DNA from: Bacillota bacterium
GTDB taxonomy: Bacteria; Bacillota; Sulfobacillia; JAJYWN01; JAJZPE01
DNA length: 24,000 nt
Assembly: GCA_021787335.1 (NCBI GenBank)
Contig: JAJYMC010000062.1
Location: 44,053-68,052, forward strand
Direction: 5' to 3'
The position numbers were made by a program, and so were the translations under genes. The notes beneath the pieces were generated by a model. It made no database searches and was not told the DNA's origin. It saw nothing but the letters and a program-made list of their open reading frames with translations. Of the stretch, positions 3,500 through 16,938 are shown piece after piece; positions within the stretch are counted from its first letter, which is position 1, and each line of letters begins with the position of its first letter.

Positions 3500-3719
3500 C
3501 GGACGACGCTCCTTTCTCTTCGGCCTCGCACAGGAAGACTTGCTCGATGCTCTTGGCGAAGCACCGGGCAATCTTATAGGCCAGCATGATGGACGGATTG
3601 TAGCGACCGGACTCGATGGAGATGATGGTCTGCCTCGATACGCCGACCCGGGAGGCCAGGTCCTCCTGGGTCAATCCGTGTTCGGCGCGGAGCTTGCGGA
3701 CCAGGTTCAGCACGGACAT
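3480..3719 (-). CDS. Small XRE-family helix-turn-helix transcriptional regulator
   Basis: LRAEHGLTQEDLASRVGVSRQTIISIESGRYNPSIMLAYKIARCF is a canonical Cro/C1-type HTH. It is the short (about 79 aa) type that commonly precedes membrane-protein or ABC-exporter genes. Confidence 0.9.
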   Translation of the reverse strand: MSVLNLVRKLRAEHGLTQEDLASRVGVSRQTIISIESGRYNPSIMLAYKIARCFAKSIEQVFLCEAEEKGASSDVLVRE

Positions 3720-5040: not shown

Positions 5041-5934
5041 ATGAGTTCGATCGACGCGGGTTCGACCGGTCTCGCCTATCAGCTCCGCGCTCTGTCCACC
5101 TTCGTCCGCCGGGACATGAAGCTCTGGACCTACTTCAAGGTCAACCTTCTCGTGGACCTTCTGGGGGTCTTTTCGAACCTGGTCATCTACGCTGTCATCG
5201 CCCGGTTCAACCCGGGCGGGGAGGGGATGGCAGCTTATAACCACGATTACGTCGCCTTTGTCGTCATCGGGCTCGTCTTCAACACCCTCCTGAGCACGGC
5301 CCTTTCGGGTCCCTACATGGGGGTAATGGACTCTTTCTGGAACAGCCGGCTCGAGGTGCTCATCATGAGCCCCGTGTCGCTGCCTGTCTTCACCGTGGGG
5401 CTCTCGGCCGGGCAATACGTGCGGGCCCTCTTCCGGGTGGCCATCTACCTCGGGGGCGGCGCGCTCCTCTTCGGCCTCAGGTTCCCGGCCGGCGCCGACC
5501 TGCCGGCCGCGGCTCTCGTCCTGTTCCTGGCCGTCGTGGCCTGTACCGGGTTGGGCTTGATGGCCGCCTCGATGATTTACATCGTCGACGCCCGGGGCGG
5601 GTCGGACCCGGTCCGCCTGGTGGTCGAGAACCTGGCCGGCGTGGCCGCCGGGGTGTATTTTCCAGTCCAGGTCCTGCCGGTCTGGGTCCAGTGGCTGGCC
5701 GGACTGGTCCCTCACACCTATGCCCTTGACGGCATCCGCCAGGCCCTGCTGGGCGGCGGCACACCACTGCCCACCCTGCCCCTGCATCGCCTTCTCCCGG
5801 CGCTCTCGCCCGTCCTGACCGACGCTCTGGCCCTGGCGGTTTACAGCGCCCTGGCCCTGCCCTTGGGGTGGGCCATGTTCAAGCGCGGACTTCGCCTGGC
5901 CAAGGTCGATGGGAGGCTTTCACGATGGGTCTGA
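5041..5934 (+). CDS. ABC-2 type transporter permease (pair 1)
   Basis: Six predicted helices. The ABC-2-like layout is paralogous to 7000-7881 (shared VAGVYFP.QV.PVW.Q segment). ATG follows GGGGGG. Confidence 0.85.
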   Translation: MSSIDAGSTGLAYQLRALSTFVRRDMKLWTYFKVNLLVDLLGVFSNLVIYAVIARFNPGGEGMAAYNHDYVAFVVIGLVFNTLLSTALSGPYMGVMDSFWNSRLEVLIMSPVSLPVFTVGLSAGQYVRALFRVAIYLGGGALLFGLRFPAGADLPAAALVLFLAVVACTGLGLMAASMIYIVDARGGSDPVRLVVENLAGVAAGVYFPVQVLPVWVQWLAGLVPHTYALDGIRQALLGGGTPLPTLPLHRLLPALSPVLTDALALAVYSALALPLGWAMFKRGLRLAKVDGRLSRWV

Positions 5935-11834: not shown

Positions 11835-12752
11835 ATGGCGCGAGTGGTCGAGTACGTCCGCCAGACCCTGCCGCAGTTGCAGGCCCTGGACAAGGCGAAG
11901 ACCGTGGCCCTGATGTCGGTCAGCCCGATCGAGGTCCACGGCCCGCATCTGCCCGTCGGGACCGACGTCTATATCTCGGAGAATCTGCGGCAGCGCTACA
12001 TCGCCGAGATCGAACGCCGTCACCCGGACTTCACCATGCTGATCATGCCACCGTTGCCCGCCGGGGCCGACCCGCTGCCGGTCGGCGGCTCAATCAACGT
12101 GCCGGCGCCGGTCCTCGAGGGGCTCATCGTCGCCTTCGCGTCCGGCCTCGCCGCCCAAGGGTTCAAATACCTTCTCATCTCGGATAACCACGGCGGCCCC
12201 CGCCACCAGATGGCCATCGAGGCGGCCGCCCGGACCGCCTGGCGCAAGCACCGCTTTTACGTCATCAACCCATTCGGCCTGGAGTTCCGGATGATGGTCC
12301 AGCACGACCCGGCCCTCATGCAGGCCACCGGGCTCGGCCCCGGCAACATCGGCGACGACCCGGACGTTCACGCCGGGACCAACGAGACCTCCCTGATGAT
12401 GGCCACCGACCTGGCCCTCATCGACCCGGGCTACCCGGGCGTACCGGCCTCGGCCCCAACTAAGGGCCCCGGCGCCCTGGCGGCCATCGGGCGCGTCCTC
12501 GCCGCTCTCGGCGGGCGGGTCCTCGGCCGCGACCTGGAGCACCTCGACGCCACCCTGGCCTGGACGGGGAAGAAGGGCTTCACGCCGTACATGGGAGCGC
12601 CGGCCAAGGCCTCGAAGGAGGCCGGCGAGGCGATGTACCGGGCCCGCGTGAACGTGGCCATGGACCTCCTCGAGCGGGCCCTCCGCGGCGAGGAACTGAA
12701 GATAACCCCGATGCTGTGGGGCCTCAGGATCCTGAGGAAGTTGCCGGGGTAG
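11835..12752 (+). CDS. Creatininase-family amidohydrolase
   Basis: N-terminal SPIEVHGPHLPVGTD is the family metal-binding signature, and DNHGGP follows later. ATG 11835 is preceded by GGGAGGG (11822-11828). Confidence 0.8.
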   Translation: MARVVEYVRQTLPQLQALDKAKTVALMSVSPIEVHGPHLPVGTDVYISENLRQRYIAEIERRHPDFTMLIMPPLPAGADPLPVGGSINVPAPVLEGLIVAFASGLAAQGFKYLLISDNHGGPRHQMAIEAAARTAWRKHRFYVINPFGLEFRMMVQHDPALMQATGLGPGNIGDDPDVHAGTNETSLMMATDLALIDPGYPGVPASAPTKGPGALAAIGRVLAALGGRVLGRDLEHLDATLAWTGKKGFTPYMGAPAKASKEAGEAMYRARVNVAMDLLERALRGEELKITPMLWGLRILRKLPG

Positions 12753-12943
12753 CGGGGGGCTGGCTGGGAACGTGAAAGCGCTATCGTTTGTCAAGAAATG
12801 ACAAACAGCAGGAGGATTGGGGGGACGGTAGAAACCTGCGGGCCATGGTTTCTCTGCCACTCTCTTGTTAATGCGCCAGCCTGGGTCAACCTGCAACGGG
12901 CAAGGGAGGCAAGAAGCCACACTTAGCAATCCAGGTGAGTGCA

Positions 12944-13345
12944 ATGAAGGCTTTCCCCCCTCCCAGTCCAGAGGAAACTGAAAGGCAGCAAGTTGGATAT
13001 CTTACCGGACAATCCGTTAACCTTCTCGCGCTGCATGACATCAAACCTCGTCCCATTTGGATAGGCCCTAGCAACATCGAGCATATGATGAATGAGCATC
13101 CGGTGGACTTCCGGCGGTTCTTCACCTATATCCCGCTCATACTTCAGGAACCACACTTCATGAGCGTGCGCCCAAGCACTGGAAGCATCGAATACGTTCG
13201 CGTTTTCGATGAATCCCGGCAGGCCGTCTTGGTAGCCGTCCGGGCCAGCAGGAGTGGAGTGCTGTACATTCGGAGCCTCTATGCGATATCTTGGGGGAAG
13301 TTGTCTTCCTATCTAGGGTCTGGTGTCATGAAAACGTACAGGTAA
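12944..13345 (+). CDS. Small protein resembling PBECR (phage-Barnase-EndoU-ColicinE5/D-RelE-like) putative nucleases
   Basis: The pattern NIEHMMNEHPVDFRRFFTYIPLILQEPHFM...SIEYVRVF...AVLVAVRASRSGVLYIRSLYAI matches my memory of this family (I..HI..rHp.d...f..yIp.ii..PDyi ... v.v.v...g..f.rT.y.i). GC is lower than in the flanks. AGGTGA precedes ATG 12944, and GTG 12935 is an alternative start. Confidence 0.5.
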   Translation: MKAFPPPSPEETERQQVGYLTGQSVNLLALHDIKPRPIWIGPSNIEHMMNEHPVDFRRFFTYIPLILQEPHFMSVRPSTGSIEYVRVFDESRQAVLVAVRASRSGVLYIRSLYAISWGKLSSYLGSGVMKTYR

Positions 13346-13367
13346 CGCGACTTTCCGCACTGTCCAC

Positions 13368-13396
13368 TTGGAAGATCGCTTGTTGTGTGCTAGACT
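13368..13396 (+). promoter_or_regulatory. Candidate extended -10 promoter in the non-coding region
   Basis: TTGGAA (13368-13373), 17 nt, TGcTAGACT (13388-13396). The same GTGCTA..A.T context occurs at the SLH gene promoter (13698-13707). Confidence 0.4.
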
Positions 13397-13402
13397 TATC
13401 CA

Positions 13403-13537
13403 TAGACGGGTAAGGATTCGACGAGGGAATCACTAAGGACGGAACAGGCAGCCGTCGCCCCCACTCTGTGGGTTAGGAGATGTAGGCGCCACCTACTAGT
13501 GACTCCCATGAAAAGGGCGCGGCAACGCGCCTTTTTC
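13403..13537 (+). ncRNA. Candidate about 135-nt structured RNA of unknown class
   Basis: No credible ORF or SD on either strand. It is bounded by the promoter-like element above and a GNRA-capped terminator hairpin. Internal hairpins are GATTC/GAATC (13415-13419/13427-13431), GACGG/CCGTC (13439-13443/13452-13456) and CCCAC/GTGGG (13459-13463/13467-13471). Confidence 0.35.
13511..13537. terminator. Bidirectional-looking intrinsic terminator
   Basis: AAAAG-GGCGCG pairs with CGCGCC-TTTTT around the tetraloop GCAA. An A-tract lies upstream and a T-tract downstream. Confidence 0.7.
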
Positions 13538-13653
13538 AATCAACTGCGGCCGCTCCCAGAAAGCAGCTCCCCTCCGGGGTAGTCACTAGTGGAGGGGCGG
13601 TTTTCCGGCCATCAGGGACAAGCCTAACACGAACGCCTGTTCGAGTCAAGAGG

Positions 13654-13697
13654 GGCCGGGAGGTGTGACCCAAATCACACCTATCCCTGCCTTTTTT
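13654..13697 (+). terminator. Strong rho-independent terminator just upstream of the SLH gene promoter
   Basis: Inner stem AGGTGTGA (13661-13668) pairs with TCACACCT (13675-13682). Outer stem GGCCGGG (13654-13660) pairs with CCCTGCC (13685-13691) with one mismatch. TTTTTT follows at 13692-13697. Confidence 0.8.
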
Positions 13698-13698
13698 G

Positions 13699-13707
13699 TG
13701 CTACAAT
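13699..13707 (+). promoter_or_regulatory. Extended -10 promoter element for the SLH/cytochrome genes
   Basis: TGcTACAAT at 13699-13707. It overlaps the track ATG at 13706, which has no SD, so I reject that start. Confidence 0.5.
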
Positions 13708-13744
13708 GGCAGGGGTCAGGGCTGTGACCAGGGGGGTAGGCATC

Positions 13745-14419
13745 GTGCGGTTTGTGAAAGTGGGCGCCATCATCGGCATCGGGCTCATCGCCGCTTTGGC
13801 GGTCGTGGCCACTTTGCCGGCCGCGGCGGCGGCGGCGAAGACCCTGCCCGACGTCAAGGGGCACTGGGCCGAGGAGGCCATCACGGTCCTCGCCGGCAAG
13901 GGCGTCATCGCCGGGTATCCCGATGGGAAGTTCCACCCGGCGGACCCCATCACCCGGGCCCAATACCTCAAACTACTGGTGCTCACCGAGGAGACCGACA
14001 TCTCCATCGGCCTCAAGCCGTCCTTCGCGGACACCGCCGACCACTGGGTCCATCGCCAGGGTTACCTGGAGACGGCCGTCAAGTGGGGGATCATCGTCCC
14101 GAGCGAGTACCCGAACCGCCGCTTCGAGCCGGACAAGGCCATCAGCCGTGAGGAGATGGCCGTCTGGACCGTTCGGGCGTCTTACATGAGCTTGCCCGGC
14201 ACGATCCCCGAGAACAGCCCGCTCAGCTTCAAGGACGCCTCCAAGGTCAGCCCCCCGGCGGTCAAGTACGTCGCCGAAGCGGTCCGCTTGGAACTGATCA
14301 AGGGCCGCCCCGACAACACCTTCGGGCCGGCTGACGGGGCGACCCGCGCCGAGGCGGCGACCATCGTCTTCAGACGCATCGGCCGCGCCCCGACCATCGG
14401 TTGCTTCCAGCACCATTGA
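13745..14419 (+). CDS. Secreted protein with three S-layer homology (SLH) domains
   Basis: Signal peptide MRFVKVGAIIGIGLIAALAVVATLPAAAAAA from GTG 13745, with GGGGGGTAGG upstream. Three SLH repeats: DVKGHWAEEAI..GYPDGKFHPADPITRAQ, FADTADHWV..FEPDKAISREEMA, FKDASKVSPPAVKYV..GRPDNTFGPADGATRAEAA. Confidence 0.9.
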   Translation: MRFVKVGAIIGIGLIAALAVVATLPAAAAAAKTLPDVKGHWAEEAITVLAGKGVIAGYPDGKFHPADPITRAQYLKLLVLTEETDISIGLKPSFADTADHWVHRQGYLETAVKWGIIVPSEYPNRRFEPDKAISREEMAVWTVRASYMSLPGTIPENSPLSFKDASKVSPPAVKYVAEAVRLELIKGRPDNTFGPADGATRAEAATIVFRRIGRAPTIGCFQHH

Positions 14420-14472
14420 GCCGGCGCGCTCCAGGCCCGCGAACTCAGGCACTCGACGCATGGGGGAGAAGC

Positions 14473-16938
14473 ATGATCAGGATCAAATCGCCCAGGACCA
14501 CGTCGCCCAGGACCACGCCGCACAGGACCACGCCGCACAGGACCACGCCGCCCAGACTCATCGGCGCCGTCCTTATCGGGCTGACCCTGACCGCGGCCGG
14601 CCTGCTGCTGGCCGCTTGCCGCGCGGGAGGCCAGGCCGCCACGTCCACCGTCCAGGGCTCAGTGACAGCCATGCAGGAGATGGCCCCCGGGCGCTTCCCC
14701 AAGCTGGCCGGGGCGAAAGTGACCCTGGAGCCAGGGAAGCAAAGCACGGTCACGGTCGAAGGCGGCAAGTTCACCTTCGCAAAGCTCCCCGCGGGAGCCT
14801 ACCGGTTGACGGTCGAGGCCGACGGGTTCGTCACCTACCATTCGGCCGAGCCGGTCCTCGCCCCGGCTGGGGCCACGGTGGACGCGCCGGTCTTCATCTT
14901 CCCCGAACCGGCTGGGGCTCCGCAGGCCCAACTGTCGGTGCAGAGCGAGGACGCCACAGTCCCCTATGGTGTGACCCTTCCGGTGTCCATCTCCGGGAGC
15001 AAGGACGCAGCCTCCGACGGCATTAGGTGGCAGGTCGTCGGCCCGGACGGCCGCGTTCTGGCCGACCCCTACCTGGGCGCGGGCCACGAGTTGCAGCTCA
15101 AGCTGTCCTCCATGCCCGGCTCGACCCCCTTCGACTTCGAGTTCATCCCACCGAAGCCGGGGCGCTACGTGCTCCGTCTCCTTCTGACCAATGGGCTCAC
15201 CCCGCAGGCCGCCGGGGACGCCGTGGCCGAGGCCACCGTCGTGGCGGCCAACACGGCGCCGGAGGCCGTCCCGTCGGTCATCGCCGGACCCAACCCGCCG
15301 AGCAAGCAGACGGCGGGCGGGCTCCGCGCGTCCAGCGGCCTGAACGTCGTCGACGCCGGCCGGACGGTCTACCTTCGCGGTTGGGCCGTCGACGTGAACA
15401 TGCCCTCGCCCGAGGTCTACAACCCCGGCGGGGTCGCCCCGGACCTCTACGGCAAGAACCACGACCAGTATCAACGGCAGTTCAAGTTCCTCTGGCGACT
15501 GGAGTACTCGGCCGACGGCAAGACCGGCTGGACGGACGTCAGCGCCCGCCTGACCTACGGTTCCGCGGCCGACGTCCCGGTGCCGTCGGAGTACCCGCAC
15601 TTCACCGCCGACCGGGCCGGCTACTACCGGGCCACTTTGCGGGTCAGCGACCAAGATCCGGCGGGCGCGCTGACCGGATCCCCGGTCAGCCTCACCGTCT
15701 TGGCGGAGGCCGATGGCCGCGTTGACACCGGCGCCTGCGCTTCGTGCCACGGCGACCGGGTGGCCTCATGGAAGGCCGGCCCGCACGGGCAGACGACCGG
15801 CGCGGCCGGATGCCAGGATTGCCATGGGCCGGCGCGCGTCCACCTGTCCGTGAACGCCGGGGATACGGCCGCCAAGCGGGCGACGCAGTCCGTCTCGCTG
15901 GCCTCCGGCACCTGCGGCCAGTGCCATAAGCAGTACGCCGAATGGGAGAAGGCCCGCCATAGCGACGGCTACTCCTACGGCTACTCGGAAGTGGCTGAGC
16001 CACTCCTTCTGAACTGCGTCAAGTGCCATAACCCCAAGGGCTTTGCGCAGGCCGTGACGATGGCCAAGGAGCAGGGAAAGGGATTCGAGGAGATCGAATT
16101 CAAGGTGGCCCCGCCGGGGGCTCCGGCCAACGCCCCAGCTGTCATGCCCGACTTCTCCAAGCTGCCGCCGAAGGACGATGCCGGCGTCACCTGCGCCACC
16201 TGTCACGATCCGCATCCCACGGCCGGCAAGGACGGGAAGGTGGCCCCGTTCGCCCTGCGGGCGGGCGCGACCGGCGCCACGTGCGACACCTGCCATCGCG
16301 AGAAGTGGCAGAACGCCGTCCTCGAAGCCAAGGCCGGGCAGTACGGCAACGGTTACGACTGGCGCCCCGCGGACAAGATCAAGAACCCGCATGACACCGC
16401 GGACAAGTGCGTCCTGTGCCACATGGCCACCGGGGTCACCGGCACCGACGCCGCCGGTGTCCGCCTGGTTGGCGGGCACACGTTGAGGATGCGCGACGCC
16501 GGCCCCGACGGCCTGCTGGGCGGGTACGGCCCGCGGGCCGATGACCCGTCGAAGGACCGCGATCCGTCCGATAAGGACGACATCCTGAACCTGGCGGCTT
16601 GCCAGAGTTGCCACAAGGGCCTCGACACCTTCGACCGTGAAGACGTCCAGAAGAAGGTCTACGACAAATGGGTGACCCTGGGCAACCTGCTCAAAGAGCG
16701 CAATGGCGGCGTTCTGCCGGAGGCCAAGCCCGGCGACAAGTGCGCCACCTGTCATCGCGGCGGGACGTTGCCCTTCAAGGACGACCCGGACCTGATCCTC
16801 GAACGGGCCTACACCAACTACAAGCTCATCAAGAACGACCGAAGCTGGGGCATTCACAACCCGGCCTACGTGCTGCAGCTCCTGGACGATTCCATCAAGC
16901 ACGTCAAGGAAGACTACCGCCCATCGGGCGGGAAGTGA
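14473..16938 (+). CDS. Multiheme c-type cytochrome lipoprotein (nine CxxCH motifs) with N-terminal beta-sandwich domains
   Basis: ATG 14473 follows GGGGGAG. Lipobox LLLAAC. A CarboxypepD_reg-like segment (KVTLEPGKQSTVTVEGGKFTFAKLPAGAYRLTVEADGF) and Ig/PKD-like regions precede the heme motifs CASCH, CQDCH, CGQCH, CVKCH, CATCH, CDTCH, CVLCH, CQSCH and CATCH. Confidence 0.9.
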   Translation: MIRIKSPRTTSPRTTPHRTTPHRTTPPRLIGAVLIGLTLTAAGLLLAACRAGGQAATSTVQGSVTAMQEMAPGRFPKLAGAKVTLEPGKQSTVTVEGGKFTFAKLPAGAYRLTVEADGFVTYHSAEPVLAPAGATVDAPVFIFPEPAGAPQAQLSVQSEDATVPYGVTLPVSISGSKDAASDGIRWQVVGPDGRVLADPYLGAGHELQLKLSSMPGSTPFDFEFIPPKPGRYVLRLLLTNGLTPQAAGDAVAEATVVAANTAPEAVPSVIAGPNPPSKQTAGGLRASSGLNVVDAGRTVYLRGWAVDVNMPSPEVYNPGGVAPDLYGKNHDQYQRQFKFLWRLEYSADGKTGWTDVSARLTYGSAADVPVPSEYPHFTADRAGYYRATLRVSDQDPAGALTGSPVSLTVLAEADGRVDTGACASCHGDRVASWKAGPHGQTTGAAGCQDCHGPARVHLSVNAGDTAAKRATQSVSLASGTCGQCHKQYAEWEKARHSDGYSYGYSEVAEPLLLNCVKCHNPKGFAQAVTMAKEQGKGFEEIEFKVAPPGAPANAPAVMPDFSKLPPKDDAGVTCATCHDPHPTAGKDGKVAPFALRAGATGATCDTCHREKWQNAVLEAKAGQYGNGYDWRPADKIKNPHDTADKCVLCHMATGVTGTDAAGVRLVGGHTLRMRDAGPDGLLGGYGPRADDPSKDRDPSDKDDILNLAACQSCHKGLDTFDREDVQKKVYDKWVTLGNLLKERNGGVLPEAKPGDKCATCHRGGTLPFKDDPDLILERAYTNYKLIKNDRSWGIHNPAYVLQLLDDSIKHVKEDYRPSGGK
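14491..14556 (+). repeat. 15-bp tandem repeat (about 4.4 copies) within the cytochrome signal-peptide n-region
   Basis: CCCAGGACCACGTCG, CCCAGGACCACGCCG, CACAGGACCACGCCG, CACAGGACCACGCCG, then CCCAGA. It encodes SPRTT-SPRTT-PHRTT-PHRTT-PPR. Confidence 0.9.

Follow-up and report, generated by a model that had tools for sequence, protein, structure and literature searches.

Can a nuclease of a toxin-type fold be paired with an RNA rather than with a protein? We asked this of a locus in a 24,000-nucleotide (nt) stretch of DNA from a Bacillota bacterium (GenBank assembly GCA_021787335.1, contig JAJYMC010000062.1, forward-strand positions 44,053 to 68,052), which as a whole we call the window and in whose own numbering coordinates are given. 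An earlier note on this DNA had pointed to an orphan PBECR-type gene and had ventured, as speculation, that its partner might be the non-coding region downstream. That link is now strongly supported: the gene encodes a small protein of the PBECR3/PBECR2 family, its non-coding neighbour is a skipping-rope RNA (Rfam RF02924), the two co-occur in 21 of 21 independent loci found by way of the protein, and no protein partner is universal across the family. The locus is a member of a known RNA-protein pairing without a characterised function, and our tentative reading is that of a toxin with an RNA antidote. Its parts, in which sRNA stands for small RNA, are these.

12753 to 13540, plus strand: lower-GC islet comprising gene, sRNA promoter, sRNA and terminator (from GC content and synteny with two related genomes, L001 and L002)
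12753 to 12943, plus strand: upstream non-coding 5' region of the gene, with two hairpins and a ribosome-binding site, AGGTGA, 6 nt before the ATG
12944 to 13345, plus strand: gene for a stand-alone PBECR3/PBECR2-family protein of 133 amino acids (aa) (from Pfam, alignment, an AlphaFold2 model and dN/dS, the ratio of nonsynonymous to synonymous divergence)
13369 to 13397, plus strand: candidate sRNA promoter, TTGGAA-17 nt-TGcTAGACT, with an extended -10 element, conserved in L001
13428 to 13504, plus strand: skipping-rope RNA (RF02924), four helices round a multi-stem junction (from covariance-model score)
13510 to 13537, plus strand: intrinsic terminator GAAAAGGGCGCG-GCAA-CGCGCCTTTTT, with its stem at 13516-13531 from the scan and then TTTTT

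The RNA neighbour and the gene beside it

The islet stands out by composition, and the drop in GC noticed before in the stretch that separates the creatininase gene from the SLH gene is borne out: in 300-nt windows GC content is 0.52-0.56 over 12700-13600 against 0.65-0.75 on both sides, with a Creatininase (PF02633) gene as one neighbour and an SLH-domain (PF00395) gene as the other. Two related Bacillota metagenome-assembled genomes (MAGs), L001 and L002, carry the islet in synteny at 84-99% identity to the window. Measured against L001, identity is 76 of 77 positions in the skipping-rope RNA, 87.8% in the adjacent coding sequence (synonymous divergence dS = 0.33), 84% in the spacer between gene and RNA, and only 52% over 13541-13660.

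Scanning 12000-14500 against Rfam, we obtained a single above-threshold match, RF02924 (54 bits against a gathering threshold of 36.7, E = 1.7e-11, model positions 1-80 of 80), which begins 82 nt past the gene's end on the same strand; a purpose-built covariance model, R1, described below, scores the same RNA at 58 bits. Through the lone change in this RNA relative to L001 an A.C mismatch in helix P1 becomes a G-C pair, and covariation across 34 sequences, the window's included, supports P1, P2 and P4, with double compensatory changes at 12 of the 17 predicted pairs and no broken pairs at the varying positions of P2 and P4. The earlier note had described a long structured region downstream of the gene, an anonymous non-coding neighbour of 350 nt. 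Its core stands, as 13404-13540 is strongly structured (z = -4.31; of 200 shuffles, 0 fold as well) and the RNA is real, but the RNA was already described as RF02924, and only about 110 of the roughly 360 nt downstream (RNA plus terminator) belong to the element, the remainder being poorly conserved spacer and the probable promoter region of the SLH gene. ARAGORN found zero tRNA or tmRNA genes in the window, which rules out the structured region as a tmRNA or a tRNA integration site.

Skipping-rope RNA comes from Weinberg et al. 2017 (NAR 45:10811, PMC5737381), whose main text describes an RNA with a 3' Rho-independent terminator and an associated protein gene that may face either way and lie to either side, reports the association with one protein domain without giving the domain's name, and credits the RNA with riboswitch- or ribozyme-like conservation and complexity, with no self-cleavage seen and no function given. 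A literature search, outside of which the supplement of that paper lay, returned no functional study of skipping-rope RNA and no paper tying it to PBECR, and in the public assemblies of this organism the sRNA is unannotated. The window copy is a full-length, above-gathering member of RF02924, with the 3' terminator and the nearby associated gene that the family has in either orientation. It shows no structural difference from the family; what differs is the host, a high-GC Bacillota MAG, and that the partner is here identified as PBECR3/PBECR2 and the dependence quantified both ways.

Signals around the RNA suggest that it is transcribed independently and strongly from a promoter of its own. 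Many other loci have a perfect or near-perfect TTGACA-17-TATAAT in the spacer between gene and RNA, ending 25-35 nt before P1, and the L001 counterpart of the candidate promoter in the window reads TTGGAG...TAGAAT. The terminator hairpin of the window appears in the minimum-free-energy fold and is conserved in L001; it is probably bidirectional, ending both the sRNA and any read-through gene transcript. Other loci likewise have a hairpin and a T-run after the RNA. No terminator stands between gene and RNA, so that a same-strand messenger RNA (mRNA) should have the RNA at its 3' end as well. Beside these signals lies a 13-nt inverted repeat, ACTAGTGACTCCC/GGTAGTCACTAGT, at 13495-13507 and 13578-13590. 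A model in which this repeat sequesters the 3' strand of P1 was dropped, the repeat not being conserved in L001.

Turning to the gene, we find the public annotation too short. An ATG at 12944 (with an alternative GTG start at 12935) opens a frame of 133 aa, which is also the length of the 83%-identical homolog P0001 from related Bacillota MAGs, named by NCBI "PBECR3 domain-containing polyvalent protein"; public gene calls give only an 85-aa C-terminal fragment (P0002, beginning MMNEHP) without the conserved Asn44 and His47. Supported by its homologs, the 133-aa open reading frame (ORF) is taken here as the correct extent of the gene, in agreement with the previous view of 12944-13345 as the only credible ORF. 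The proposed Pfam check placed the protein above both curated cut-offs, comfortably for PBECR3 (PF18812; 49.7 bits against 30, E = 4e-13, profile positions 3-112 of 115) and marginally for PBECR2 (PF18810; 27.4 bits against 27.1). The histidine motif from which the family had been guessed is present, as N-I-E-H-M-M-N-E-H-P, but it is spaced as H-x4-H-P instead of H-x3-H-P.

Run exhaustively over 1.84 billion representative proteins, phmmer returned 194 relatives, nearly all of them stand-alone proteins of 115-140 aa, and a profile search returned at least 512 clusters, each with both the PBECR3 and the PBECR2 domain. In a 61-member alignment His52 is invariant and Asn44, His47, Pro70, Ser81, Val99, Arg100 and Arg110 are kept at 90% or more, with no conserved stretch of 7-10 columns. 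Set beside the BECR active site (a histidine of the N-terminal helix plus a C-terminal Ser/Thr), the candidate residues are His52, His47 and Ser81, a possible correspondence at the level of the alignment. An AlphaFold2 model built on the same alignment (pLDDT 95.4) has helices at 42-51 and 53-68, then strands at 72-75, 82-88, 93-101 and 107-115, and this predicted, not solved, structure has the helix-plus-four-strand BECR core defined in Iyer et al. 2017 (PMC5512222). Compared by Foldseek with BFVD, it gave seven matches at E < 1e-3 (E = 1.4e-5 to 7e-4, probability 1.0, TMq 0.58-0.69), the targets being phage MuF-C and "Nuclease" proteins and large polyvalent ones. The comparison with Barnase/RelE folds that had been called for thus returned a confident model, a BECR core and matches to phage PBECR/MuF-C domains.

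We therefore treat the protein as a predicted metal-independent BECR-fold RNase; RNases of this fold typically serve as the toxins in toxin-antitoxin (TA) systems, in colicins and in polymorphic-toxin systems (Iyer et al. 2017, PMC5512222). A dN/dS of 0.25 against L001 indicates that the gene is maintained under purifying selection. Searching with the protein gave no match among PDB sequences and, by tblastn, none in 50,697 phage genomes. PBECR domains were described as domains of polyvalent proteins by Iyer, Burroughs, Anand, de Souza and Aravind (2017, PMC5512222; PF18812/PF18810), whereas the window protein is a solo form of about 120-135 aa and not one domain within a polyvalent protein packaged in the virion, sits in a plasmid, prophage or islet setting, and has an RNA link that is not described there.

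Linkage of gene and RNA across genomes

How constant is the pairing? Among 72,556 plasmids searched by tblastn with the protein, we found 19 small ones with a match, of Bacillus, Clostridium, Planococcus, Brevibacillus and Fusobacterium, and all nine distinct loci fetched from them carry a skipping-rope RNA, six on the same strand as the gene and three on the opposite strand. Ten further family proteins, from clusters in metagenomes and genomes and picked solely for their long contigs, all (10/10) have the RNA at the same place past the stop codon. With the window and L001 these make up the 21 protein-first loci, in each of which some 30-140 nt separate the stop codon from the RNA, whichever strand the latter is on, so that the survey of homologs for a conserved non-coding neighbour, as the earlier note had proposed, found one throughout. 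At one type of locus (L150, positions 1501-2979, and also L151) two convergent PBECR3 genes, of 122 and 141 aa, lie downstream of a prophage holin/amidase cassette, and between them are two RNAs of different subtypes, one per gene. Both partners are found on plasmids and prophages and could in principle be chance neighbours hitch-hiking on shared mobile DNA, a notion to which we attach next to no weight: 21 of 21 at this distance across unrelated replicons and phyla, with varying orientation, one RNA per gene where there are two genes and surroundings that otherwise have nothing in common, is a survey result that effectively refutes chance adjacency.

Working in the other direction, a degenerate pattern of the RNA core gave 119 loci in species-representative genomes, each fetched at about 8 kb. 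Covariance model R1, made from 34 gene-linked trimmed RNAs of one subtype, splits these cleanly into 90 true RNAs (at least 48 bits) and 29 chance matches (at most 24 bits). The 90 true RNAs are distributed as follows.

Full-length family ORF 36-176 nt from the RNA: 34 of 90 (32 on the same strand and 5' of the RNA, 2 on the opposite strand)
Truncated family ORF beside the RNA: 10 of 90
Family ORF 758 nt from the RNA: 1 of 90
RNA too close to the edge of the locus to judge: 18 of 90
Orphan RNA, with no family ORF in the fetched 8-kb locus: 27 of 90

Among the 72 informative copies, then, 45 have a full or decayed PBECR gene near them and 27 are orphans. The orphans (e.g., L054, L060, L077, L116, L128) still score 55-95 bits, and the 27 share no alternative neighbouring family. 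Taken with the protein-first count, they make the dependence asymmetric: the protein was never seen without the RNA, and the RNA often outlives an intact protein gene. The pattern is one of toxin genes decayed with the RNA retained, never the reverse. The truncated ORFs in the ten loci listed above have lost their N-terminal part and lie beside an intact RNA.

Orientation bears on a simpler explanation, in which the RNA is a 3'-untranslated-region element and the protein binds or cleaves its own mRNA for autoregulation or processing, with no role in trans. The prevailing layout would suit it: 32 of the 34 full genomic loci have gene and RNA on one strand, with 36-176 nt from the stop to the RNA and no terminator intervening. 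Against it, gene and RNA lie on opposite strands in pTA1060, Planococcus, Anoxybacillus, L110 and L123 and for the second gene of L150; the RNA has a consensus promoter of its own; and orphan RNAs persist. We consider this cis-acting role improbable.

RNA subtype varies with protein subfamily, the Bacillus thuringiensis and Brevibacillus loci having a different P2 loop. The habitat is that of mobile DNA: small plasmids and, in prophages, the immunity regions or the ends, with cI-like repressors, integrases and lysis genes as neighbours. On pTA1060 (L006, NC_001766.1) and in L013, at 3583-3638 in both, the inverted skipping-rope RNA adjoins a Bacillus-plasmid RNA (RF01691, 61 bits), a second Rfam sRNA of unassigned role that is found on Bacillus rolling-circle plasmids.

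Could a protein partner have been overlooked? For the window the absence of an adjacent immunity or antitoxin ORF, as first noted, was confirmed, with no conserved ORF on either strand in 12753-12943 or 13346-13705; the sole small plus-strand ORF upstream (42 aa, 12798-12926) is not retained in L001. Elsewhere, between a sizeable minority and about half of the homologous loci have a gene just upstream of the PBECR gene, of the following kinds, in which HTH stands for helix-turn-helix and RHH for ribbon-helix-helix.

Cro/C1-type HTH_26 gene overlapping the PBECR gene by 4 nt
cI-like HTH_3 gene in prophage immunity regions
HicB-like gene (43.9 bits)
Weakly RHH-like gene
Gene for an HTH_36-like protein of about 300 aa

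Such genes, directly preceding the PBECR gene in several loci, are what one would expect if the protein were a type II toxin that has lost its antitoxin here, its true partner being the small DNA-binding protein upstream and the RNA unrelated. Yet they span five or more unrelated families, and several are clearly repressors that belong to the prophage itself. Of 44 loci, at least 20, the window and L001 among them, have no operonic upstream ORF at all; the window gene is under purifying selection without a partner; and the universal neighbour is RNA, not protein. That homologs might always be accompanied by a protein simply deleted here, an outcome the earlier note had allowed for, is thus not what the loci show, and we place a lost antitoxin marginally below the cis-acting role in likelihood. 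Known type II toxins of the RelE/BrnT/HigB kind share with the protein its small size, a distant fold likeness and, at some loci, the upstream HTH, RHH or HicB-like gene; among PDB entries the best match open to interpretation is BrnT, a RelE-like toxin (3u97; probability 0.87, E = 0.12, TM 0.57 on the target). They differ in that we found no significant sequence or structure match to them (E > 0.08) and no conserved antitoxin, none being present in the window.

The protein of about 300 aa, with a sub-threshold HTH_36/MarR/DnaD_N-like region, stands directly before the PBECR gene in L006, L008, L123 and L144-L146, the pTA1060, Planococcus and Anoxybacillus loci, in all of which the RNA is inverted. 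In one other opposite-strand locus, L110, we found no upstream ORF. The 300-aa protein, the PBECR gene and an inverted RNA may make up a distinct three-part sub-architecture.

Possible roles of the RNA

With the pairing established, the question becomes what the RNA does to the protein. We favour, at somewhat short of an even chance, a pair of toxin and RNA antidote in which the RNA would act as antitoxin at the protein level, with a logic like that of type III TA systems. The toxin-type fold, the lack of an immunity protein, the obligate and conserved RNA, its survival beside decaying genes and the plasmid and prophage habitat all argue for this choice. The broader claim, that PBECR plus skipping-rope RNA is a widespread and hitherto unrecognised RNA-antitoxin class in which a junction-folded, single-copy sRNA with a strong promoter of its own inhibits a BECR RNase directly, we put forward a shade more cautiously.

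As we picture it, the protein would be a sequence- or structure-specific endoribonuclease able to damage the cell, or else an invader. The sRNA would be made in excess, from its own strong promoter and as the 3' end of the read-through gene transcript, would fold into the multi-stem junction, and would bind the protein and keep the RNase inactive, as an RNA antitoxin or a pseudo-substrate; the invariant single-stranded GAGAU/GAGG junction nucleotides are perhaps what is offered as the pseudo-substrate. Loss of the element, or a phage-induced block of host transcription, would run down the RNA and so release the RNase, the outcome being plasmid addiction or abortive-infection-type defence or exclusion. 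The module in the window would be a chromosomal islet received from a lower-GC donor and kept by purifying selection.

Several points weigh against this interpretation. RNase activity, toxicity, RNA binding and neutralisation are all predictions from sequence. The protein has no significant match among solved structures (best PDB E = 0.09-0.12) and no matching model in PADLOC, NCBIfam or PHROGs. The sRNA promoter of the window, at 8 of 12 consensus positions, falls below the scan threshold. An HTH, RHH or HicB-like gene lies just upstream in about 6 of the 44 RNA-first loci and in most protein-first ones, and could be a protein antitoxin or a regulator. The RNA is single-copy, downstream and without repeats, unlike type III antitoxins, and its very high junction conservation led Weinberg et al. 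(PMC5737381) to suspect a more elaborate biochemical role. Lastly, the constant company of the RNA would be explained just as well if it were a cofactor that the protein cannot do without.

This last point opens the strongest alternative, a ribonucleoprotein (RNP): the protein would need the RNA as a subunit, be it scaffold, activator, sensor or specificity element, and the active agent would be the complex, say in defence or where mobile elements compete with one another. The constant presence of the RNA beside the gene, its riboswitch- or ribozyme-like complexity without self-cleavage (as given in the main text of Weinberg et al. 2017, PMC5737381), its apparently strong expression from its own promoter, and the way RNA subtypes track protein subfamilies (the P2 loop of the Bacillus thuringiensis and Brevibacillus loci) would all agree with it. 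On the cofactor model, however, the 27 orphan RNAs and the 10 beside truncated genes would be useless remnants, yet they score 48-95 bits, and characterised BECR RNases act without RNA cofactors, as is established for the fold (Iyer et al. 2017, PMC5512222). We judge a cofactor role rather unlikely, at a distinctly lower level than an RNA antidote and well above the other alternatives.

An antidote acting on the mRNA rather than on the protein would be a type I-like antisense RNA, pairing with the toxin message and blocking its translation. At 3 of 15 loci (the window, L009 and L006) the sRNA forms a duplex at the translation start some 3 standard deviations better than shuffles, but over the 15 loci the mean z is -0.39 with no conserved complementarity, the duplex in the window is a long imperfect GC-rich pairing, and the conserved nucleotides lie in junctions and loops, not in an antisense stretch. 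Antisense pairing is unsupported by these figures, and we hold it to be very improbable.

Returning to the RNA antidote, the nearest known systems are the type III TA systems (ToxIN, CptIN, TenpIN), with which the module would share an endoribonuclease held in check by an abundant RNA, residence on plasmids and prophages, and an addiction or abortive logic. The toxin fold there is ToxN/Kid-like and here BECR; we found no ToxN, CptN or TenpN toxin, the only Pfam matches of the protein being PBECR3/PBECR2 and PADLOC giving no match. The antitoxin there is a tandem-repeat array and here a single multi-helix junction RNA of about 75 nt, with no tandem repeats in 12700-13750 and no relevant direct repeats. 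It lies upstream there, with an intervening terminator, and here downstream, where it has a promoter to itself and in some loci is on the opposite strand; and the RNA is processed by the toxin there, with no apparent indication of such processing here. The module is thus type III-like in its proposed logic but departs from that type in three defining features, and it is not to be filed as a member.

A looser parallel is offered by the DUF3800-associated motifs and drum RNA, which according to the main text of Weinberg et al. (2017, PMC5737381) are likewise structured sRNAs with a terminator, tied to one protein family in either orientation, and for which the authors themselves noted a possible relationship. 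DUF3800 is RNase H-like (PMC7736814), the RNA folds are unrelated, and no DUF3800 gene was seen beside the RNAs surveyed here.

Identifying the obligate neighbour of skipping-rope RNA as a predicted toxin-type RNase, with asymmetric dependence, gives a directly testable hypothesis. If the RNA neutralises the RNase, the pair would be a new RNA-antitoxin architecture, common on Firmicute plasmids and prophages and lying beyond the repeat-array type III systems, and an orphan RNA class singled out in 2017 would have a function; if the RNA is a cofactor, the pair would be a new small RNP nuclease.

The upstream region and flanking DNA

The two hairpins described before in front of the gene lie exactly at their given coordinates (GTTTGTCA/TGACAAAC at 12786-12806, AGAAACC/GGTTTCT at 12830-12853), but their structure does not rise above chance. 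The 191-nt upstream region folds no better than its shuffles (z = -1.08; 30 of 200 do as well), and in L001, 84% identical over 12753-12943, both substitutions in hairpin 1 disrupt pairs and none is compensatory. The upstream hairpins as functional structure are unsupported on these two grounds, and the Rfam scan gave no family match in 12753-12943.

On the downstream side, 13541-13705 includes a conserved CCCCTCC/GGAGGGG hairpin, and a hairpin element of about 45 nt, CATCAGGGACAAGCCTAACACGAACGCCTGTTCGAGTCAAGAG, lies at 13610-13653 in the window, downstream of the module. Its L001 counterpart is at 5760-5805; in L001 and L002 the element sits upstream of the module, right after the creatininase stop codon, with one copy per lineage, which suggests that either the cassette or the 45-nt element has shifted relative to the other. 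Farther on, 13661-13711 holds a palindrome, GGTGTGACCCAAATCACACC, and then TTTTTTGTGCTACAATGG, with the extended -10 element TGTGCTACAAT, both conserved in L001. These are probably the operator and promoter of the SLH gene, which starts at 13706, and lie outside the module. The SLH-domain gene is followed, within 13706-16938, by a gene for an 845-aa protein, whose Pfam matches are CarboxypepD_reg and several of the multihaem-cytochrome type, a pair that suggests a cell-surface electron-transfer apparatus in a Gram-positive MAG.

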